From Escherichia coli (GTDB lineage: Bacteria; Pseudomonadota; Gammaproteobacteria; Enterobacterales; Enterobacteriaceae), in assembly GCF_003334405.1 (NCBI RefSeq), contig NZ_QOWM01000004.1: a DNA stretch of 64,000 nt; one strand, written 5' to 3'. Below the pieces are notes generated by a model. It made no database searches. It had not been told where the DNA came from and saw nothing but the letters and a program-made list of their open reading frames with translations. Of the stretch, positions 63,091 to 63,356 are shown in pieces (the first letter of the stretch is position 1; every line of letters begins with the position of its first letter). Both the position numbers and the translations under genes were made by a program.

Positions 63091-63356
63091 GCCCTGCATA
63101 CACCCCTCACTCTATATCACTCTCACAAATTCGCTCAAATAATAAACAATAAACTCTGTTTTTTGATCTCACCCGGTAAAGTCGCCTATCTTTTCAGCAA
63201 CAAAACTTGATTAACATCAATTTTGGTATGACCAATGCACCATTCATGTTATTCTCAATAGCGAAGAACATTTTCATTGCTGTAACCTGTTGTTAATTAA
63301 GAGCTATGTTAATAACCATTAATTAACAATTGGTTAATAAATTTAAGGGGGTCACG

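Follow-up and report, generated by a model that had tools for sequence, protein, structure and literature searches.

An AT-rich element in the ndh leader of Escherichia coli is very probably an ArcA operator whose bases also form an RNase III-cleaved hairpin

The AT-rich symmetric element just upstream of ndh in E. coli is very probably the ArcA~P operator of this gene, and the same bases form a hairpin in the transcript that is cleaved by RNase III. Because these bases form a hairpin once transcribed, the stretch carries signals at both the DNA and the RNA level. Others have published that ArcA occupies the site in vivo, that ArcA~P represses ndh in vitro and that RNase III cleaves the leader both in vivo and in vitro; the coordinate identity, the matrix rank, the conservation and the hairpin statistics come from the present analysis of a 64,000-nt stretch of E. 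coli DNA (hereafter the window). Because both layers, the ArcA site and the RNase III hairpin, are in the literature, the finding in itself is already known. The link between the two as the same bases was not found stated in the literature searched. The operator and the RNase III-cleaved stem share bases and appear to co-evolve across the Enterobacteriaceae, which we regard as a modest lead.

The element lies in the spacer between ycfP and ndh, and 481 bases around it have a match in each of the 5,426 complete E. coli genomes. K-12 MG1655 is identical to the window across the compared stretch, and published coordinates were converted by subtracting 1,102,728 from NC_000913.3 positions or 1,101,951 from U00096.2 positions. 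The original prediction had described a direct repeat around an imperfect palindrome, and both are present as described: the string gttaataaccattaattaacaattggttaataa is read at 63308-63340, the 8-mer GTTAATAA has exactly two copies (63308-63315 and 63333-63340), and the outer arms TTAATAACCA (63309-63318) and TGGTTAATAA (63331-63340) are 90% complementary. The palindrome had been centred on TTAATTAA (63319-63326); the dyad centre of the outer arms does fall inside this octamer but at 63324.5, 2 bp off its midpoint. By itself the 8-mer direct repeat is within chance, as 84 of 500 dinucleotide shuffles of the spacer (33% GC) have one (17%). A larger inverted repeat, which was absent from the original prediction as were ArcA and the RNase III-cleaved hairpin, joins 63283-63307 with 63312-63336 (25 nt, 80% complementary, 4-nt spacer; repeat finder). 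The best ungapped core of this inverted repeat, TAACCnnTTGTTAATTAA, shows 16/18 matches, a level that none of 500 shuffles reaches, and the element is the 3' half of the resulting 54-nt dyad (63283-63336). Downstream of ycfP, a REP-type palindromic unit at 63014-63082 matches Rfam naRNA4 (RF02564) on both strands with scores of 56.5 and 52.5 bits, just below the gathering score of 59.5, and a terminator-like hairpin lies within it at 63051-63067.

The element is located in the transcribed leader. The FNR site of ndh is at -50.5 (Myers et al. 2013), and a second genuine FNR site lies about 44 bp farther upstream, giving FNR positions of -50.5 and -94.5. Because FNR site I (63207-63220) is the site at -50.5 and the published +46 of the ArcA site corresponds to 63309, the transcription start site (TSS) is at about 63264. 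The element, which had been placed in the ndh promoter, is therefore at about +45 to +77 in the leader and not in the promoter proper, and a gap of 16 nt separates its end from the TTG start codon of ndh. The promoter itself is non-canonical: a sigma-70 consensus scan of the spacer gave no match, and the extended -10 was read by eye. The TTG start is kept in most Enterobacteriaceae and is ATG or GTG in Kluyvera and a few others. The features of the locus are collected in Table 1.

Table 1. Features of the ycfP-ndh spacer and the ndh leader, in window coordinates, with the mean majority fraction (MMF) over 80 Enterobacteriaceae sequences
Feature	Position	Strand	MMF	Remarks
FNR site I TTGATTAACATCAA	63207-63220	+	0.91	Perfect consensus; -50.5; outside the element
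PdhR box ttTTGGTatgACCAATg	63221-63237	+	0.99	Over the -35 region; sequence as in Anzai et al. 2020, Table 1; outside the element
Extended -10 TGtTATTCT	63247-63255		0.97	Read by eye
TSS to +18			0.58	
Left arm			0.94	
Loop			0.62	
Right arm	63319-63338		0.99	
ndh coding sequence, first 30 nt			0.89	
IHF-like core TAACAACAGGTTA	63283-63295	-		One mismatch to WATCAANNNNTTR; centred at about +26
Mirror-image IHF-like core TAACAATTGGTTA	63324-63336	+		One mismatch; inside the invariant TTAACAATTGGTTAAT
IHF-like core	63327-63339	-		One mismatch to WATCAANNNNTTR
Leader RNA hairpin, 24-25 bp AU-rich stem	63283-63336	+		4-nt loop 63308-63311; from inverted repeat and folding
RNase III cleavage marker	63315	+		NC_000913.3 1166043, mapped via MG1655 locus L085; hairpin apex, inside the element
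Left-arm ArcA-like box TTGTTAATTAAGAGCTAT	63290-63307	+		Inverted relative to the published site; 11.6 bits; without entry in Park et al.
Three-direct-repeat ArcA~P operator	63309-63340	-		+46/+77; exact match to TTATTAACCAATTGTTAATTAATGGTTATTAA of Park et al. 2013, Table S4
Direct repeat TTATTAACCA	63340-63331	-		ArcA operator repeat
Direct repeat TTGTTAATTA	63329-63320	-		ArcA operator repeat
Direct repeat TGGTTATTAA	63318-63309	-		ArcA operator repeat
Core 18-bp ArcA box TTGTTAATTAATGGTTAT	63312-63329	-		18.7 bits in Park et al., Table S3; 18.8 bits with our matrix
ndh Shine-Dalgarno AAGGGGG	63345-63351	+		5' of the TTG start
ndh start codon TTG	63357-63359	+		Translation MTTPLKK...; RefSeq CDS start 1166085

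The assignment to ArcA is based on coordinate identity with a published site. Park et al. (2013, PLoS Genet 9:e1003839) list a three-direct-repeat ArcA site at ndh (U00096.2 1165260-1165291; repeats of 3.6, 12.5 and 8 bits), and their Table S7 gives its location as +46/+77. The 32-mer of this site has a single occurrence in the 64-kb window, on the minus strand at 63309-63340, which is the element without its first G. The direct repeats are of the TGTTA type, on the minus strand and 11 bp apart from centre to centre (starts 63340, 63329 and 63318). Table S1 of Park et al. also gives ArcA ChIP-seq peaks of heights 11.9 and 11 at ndh, located at 1165227 and 1165239, and their Table S3 a minus-strand 18-bp ArcA box of 18.7 bits, ttgttaattaatggttat.

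To score the locus with ndh left out, we built an ArcA log-odds matrix from the 114 other ArcA boxes of Park et al. Among the approximately 128,000 positions and strands of the window, the best score is that of 63312-63329(-), at 18.8 bits; 63323-63340(-) comes fourth with 13.0 bits and the left-arm box, 63290-63307(+), tenth with 11.6 bits, so that the ndh leader holds three of the ten highest-scoring matches of the 64 kb within 58 bp. A scan for regulator motifs, as the original prediction had proposed, thus returns a very strong match, to a regulator that it had not named. The left arm is possibly a second ArcA-bound site, at +27/+44, judging from its matrix score. Two extra matches are found nearby, 63200-63217(-), which overlaps FNR site I and is near the -57 site among the predictions in Rolfe et al., and 63271-63288(-), just 5' of the left arm (10.3 and 10.2 bits, ranks 17 and 20 in the window). 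The top matches elsewhere, at 638-655(+), 1130-1147(-) and 16375-16392(-), are the published csgD, csgB and yceJ ArcA boxes, which match by construction because they are members of the training set; from the csgD and csgB matches near its start, the window begins near the csg locus.

ArcA~P represses ndh transcription in vitro (Rolfe et al. 2012), and the predicted ArcA sites at ndh cited in that study are at -57, +36, +52, +57, +66 and +68. The effect of ArcA on ndh in vivo is disputed: the ndh entry in Table S7 of Park et al. carries both a "+" (Liu & De Wulf 2004) and a "-" (Rolfe 2012), and no ArcA-dependent change of ndh was seen under the anaerobic conditions of Park et al. (2013). The literature searched yielded no ArcA footprint on ndh. 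The ndh site resembles the multi-repeat ArcA operators that Park et al. (2013) catalogued in E. coli, such as the three-repeat sites of icdA, rutA and lon, in its TGTTA-type direct repeats and their 11-bp spacing, in its strong 18-bp box, in its ChIP-seq occupancy and in having a respiratory or carbon-oxidation target, and it is itself part of that catalogue. The downstream ArcA sites of tpx (+2/+34) and caiT (+19/+61) are comparable, but the ndh site at +46/+77 is unusually far downstream. Unlike the other operators, it is mirrored by the inverted ArcA-like box at 63290-63307, which creates a long palindrome, and the sign of its effect in vivo is under dispute.

Conservation was assessed in an alignment of the spacer from 80 orthologous loci, one genome per species, all from Enterobacteriaceae with Ndh at least 92% identical; the homologue search gave proteins of at least 84% identity, and Yersinia, Serratia, Proteus and Vibrio lie outside the sample. 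It is evident that the conservation of 63319-63338 is beyond chance. This right arm and the PdhR box share a mean majority fraction of 0.99, above that of the ndh coding start, and the TTAACAATTGGTTAAT block is invariant in the alignment. The minus-strand ArcA box is kept in 81 of 81 Enterobacteriaceae sequences (minimum 13.4 bits, mean 18.9 bits), and the left-arm ArcA-like box ranges from 1.8 to 21.6 bits across orthologues. Among four more distant genomes, the minus-strand box scores 18.1 bits in Erwinia and 16.4 bits in Pantoea; it is weaker in Shimwellia and Tenebrionibacter, in which the plus-strand box is better. In Shimwellia (L083:624-680), GTTGT/ACAAT replace GTTAT/ATAAC in a clear compensatory swap of the two arms, with the ArcA boxes weakened and the stem kept.

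At the RNA level, the element constitutes the apex and the 3' arm of the larger inverted repeat. The stem has 25 positions, of which about 20 bp are paired in the E. coli K-12 fold and 24 in the genus consensus, and RNAalifold independently predicts the same stem at 63283-63336. The minimum free energy of the E. coli stem is -17.2 kcal/mol (z = -4.85), and none of 200 shuffles is equally stable. Even lower values are found in Enterobacter (-24.8 kcal/mol, z = -7.3) and Shimwellia (-24.2 kcal/mol, z = -7.8), and the stems of Erwinia and Pantoea are weaker (z = -2.9 and -1.9). The inner stem of K-12 has an A.C mismatch at 63302/63317 and a G.A mismatch at 63301/63318; position 63317 is C in K-12 and T in E. 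coli E69, E. albertii, E. whittamii and most other genera. In most other genera these positions form A-U or G.U pairs, which makes the hairpin of K-12 weaker than the genus consensus. An Rfam search on the stem found no family, the only matches being to generic hairpins (miRNA precursors) at E>1. In the RNAalifold consensus, a small invariant GUC...GAC stem brackets the ndh start codon (columns 98-103 of alignment A1).

The leaders of pnp and rnc carry the classical RNase III-processed mRNA stem-loops. The predicted ndh leader stem, downstream of the TSS, likewise has the double-stranded region of at least about 22 nt that is expected of RNase III substrates. An RNase III site annotated as "intergenic ycfP-ndh" was reported at NC_000913.3 1166043, with 0 reads in the wild type and 108 in the rnc mutant, and ndh is one of the 11 verified sites of that study (Gordon et al. 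2017, mBio 8:e00128-17). The in-vitro transcript of the ndh leader was cut by purified RNase III, with multiple cuts mapped by 5' RACE within a predicted long double-stranded region, and the stability (half-life) of the ndh transcript was unchanged by the cleavage (Gordon et al. 2017). Because the cleavage left transcript stability unaltered, the RNA layer is without demonstrated consequence. The ndh leader thus shares with the other leader stems in Gordon et al. (2017) a 5' stem of at least 22 bp, cleavage by the purified enzyme, and reads that are lost in the wild type but not in rnc. It differs from other RNase III-processed leaders in its unaltered half-life and in having a very AU-rich stem on the same bases as a transcription-factor operator.

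The substitutions in the stem bear on an alternative that we consider improbable, namely that the element is selected primarily as an RNA hairpin, for RNase III processing or for tuning ndh translation or stability, and that the resemblance to ArcA sites and the ChIP signal are secondary to an AT-rich palindrome. RNase III does cleave at this site in vivo, and the stem is near-perfect in many genera, as the z-scores of Enterobacter (-7.3) and Shimwellia (-7.8) show. In alignment A1, 94% of the stem cells are paired, and 8 double-change cells are observed vs 1.8 ± 1.3 in shuffles (0/500). With a neighbour-joining tree built from the adjacent coding sequence, we counted 9 compensatory double changes on single branches and 55 pair-preserving interconversions between Watson-Crick and G.U pairs, vs 42 pair-breaking events; among the transitions out of Watson-Crick pairs, 26 are of the G.U type vs 16 of the A.C type. 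In Intestinirhabdus both arms have changed (GG/CC; GTTAGGTAA and TTACCTAAC), and the two ArcA scores are down to 1.8 and 13.4 bits, yet the stem is kept at -22.4 kcal/mol. This genus is represented by I. alba, row L061 of A1 (L061:221-321), which shows a compensatory arm swap. Pairing alone, however, leaves unexplained why the right arm shows no variation even at positions that could tolerate wobble-neutral changes, and one stem pair is most often a C.A mismatch (57 of 77 distinct sequences). The stem has decayed in the Erwiniaceae (z = -2.9 in Erwinia and -1.9 in Pantoea), whereas the minus-strand ArcA box persists (18.1 and 16.4 bits), and RNase III cleavage has no effect on half-life. The pattern of changes is suggestive of selection on stem pairing, although template switching in DNA quasi-palindromes can also yield compensatory changes without selection and could mimic it.

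The original prediction had read the element as a composite operator of FNR and/or the NO-responsive NsrR, modulated by Fis and IHF. The idea of a regulatory operator with overlapping functions has held up, but the regulators named were mostly wrong, and this particular combination is very improbable. The FNR operator (TTGAT-N4-ATCAA) and the element are both AT-rich dyads at the same gene, and TTAAT/ATTAA resemble TTGAT/ATCAA; the only FNR-like sequence in the element is TTAATAACCATTAA (63309-63322), whose 2 mismatches are the missing G and C of both half-sites. Matches of this kind occur at chance frequency (39 found vs 32 expected), and the perfect and the second genuine FNR sites are both upstream. 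For NsrR (AAGATGCYTTT half-site; 11-1-11 inverted repeat), the half-sites in the element have at least 4/11 mismatches and the full site has 11, and the best NsrR-like matches are upstream of the element. Overlapping FNR, Fis, IHF, NsrR, PdhR and ArcA sites at the ndh promoter are recorded in EcoCyc, according to the passage of the IPOD-HR paper that cites it. The nucleoid factors fared better in part: two IHF-like cores (63324-63336 and 63327-63339) overlap the element, whereas the strict Fis consensus GNNYRWWWWWYRNNC has no match in it; Fis sites are degenerate, so Fis binding is compatible with this result. The sole strict Fis match in the spacer, GCTCAAATAATAAAC, is at 63133-63147, centred at about -124. 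Fis sites at ndh are reportedly at -123, -72 and +51 (Fis III), and the spacer match is presumably the first of these, Fis I. A PdhR box was also suspected in the element from ATTGGT and ACCA; their orientation and spacing are wrong, the GGT-N3-ACC core of the PdhR box (AATTGGTnnnACCAATT) is absent from the element, and the published ndh box maps to 63221-63237.

A possibility that deserves more weight, though we still think it unlikely, is that the element is an architectural site at which IHF, Fis, H-NS or HU would bend the AT-rich leader or bridge it, ArcA being only one of several occupants. The IHF pattern used here, a WATCAANNNNTTR core with an A/T-rich 5' flank, gave three one-mismatch cores, which are weak evidence as consensus matches; the 64 kb contain 75 IHF-like cores, and 3 of them lie within a 57-bp stretch of the leader, one being centred at +26. 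An IHF site at ndh is said to be at +26, and we take the core at 63283-63295(-) to match it. The reported Fis III site at +51 likewise counts in favour of this alternative. H-NS binds the ycfP-ndh spacer by genomic SELEX, and the occupancy of the ndh promoter in IPOD-HR has been attributed in part to IHF. An architectural role would nevertheless add to ArcA binding rather than compete with it, and the invariance of GTTAAT-N5-GGTTA is better explained by the ArcA matrix. At the other extreme, a chance low-complexity repeat in an AT-rich spacer has a negligible probability: the 8-mer direct repeat is indeed found in 17% of shuffles, but the block is conserved like the PdhR box and more than coding sequence, the inverted repeat is found in 0/500 shuffles, and published ChIP-seq and RNase III data map to the element. 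The conservation and the published data already refute an origin by chance.

The ArcA operator would act as follows. Reduction of the quinone pool under micro-aerobic or anaerobic conditions would lead ArcB to phosphorylate ArcA, and ArcA~P would oligomerise on the three minus-strand repeats at +46/+77 and lower ndh transcription from downstream of the TSS, beside FNR (-50.5 and -94.5), PdhR (-35 region) and nucleoid proteins. Repression may proceed by a roadblock or by interference with promoter escape; we infer both the mechanism and the conditions under which it is relevant. Once transcribed, the element would be the apex and the 3' arm of the 24-25 bp AU-rich hairpin, which RNase III cuts, and the cut may have a function of its own. 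A bolder proposal, which we hold only tentatively and consider rather unlikely, treats operator and hairpin as a single co-evolving dual-coded element, in which the inverted ArcA box is kept for the sake of the long stem and RNase III processing would set both the 5' end and the translation efficiency of the TTG-initiated ndh mRNA.

The ndh gene encodes the non-proton-pumping NADH dehydrogenase, whose level sets the efficiency with which respiration is coupled to energy conservation in E. coli, and its promoter is among the most heavily regulated in this organism. Assigning the element to ArcA and RNase III, and not to FNR or NsrR, avoids a mis-annotation. If the RNA layer is functional, the ndh leader would be a compact case of dual coding in a bacterial leader, and, if the dual coding is true, redox control at the DNA level and control at the RNA level would be coupled within the same 54 nt across the Enterobacteriaceae.
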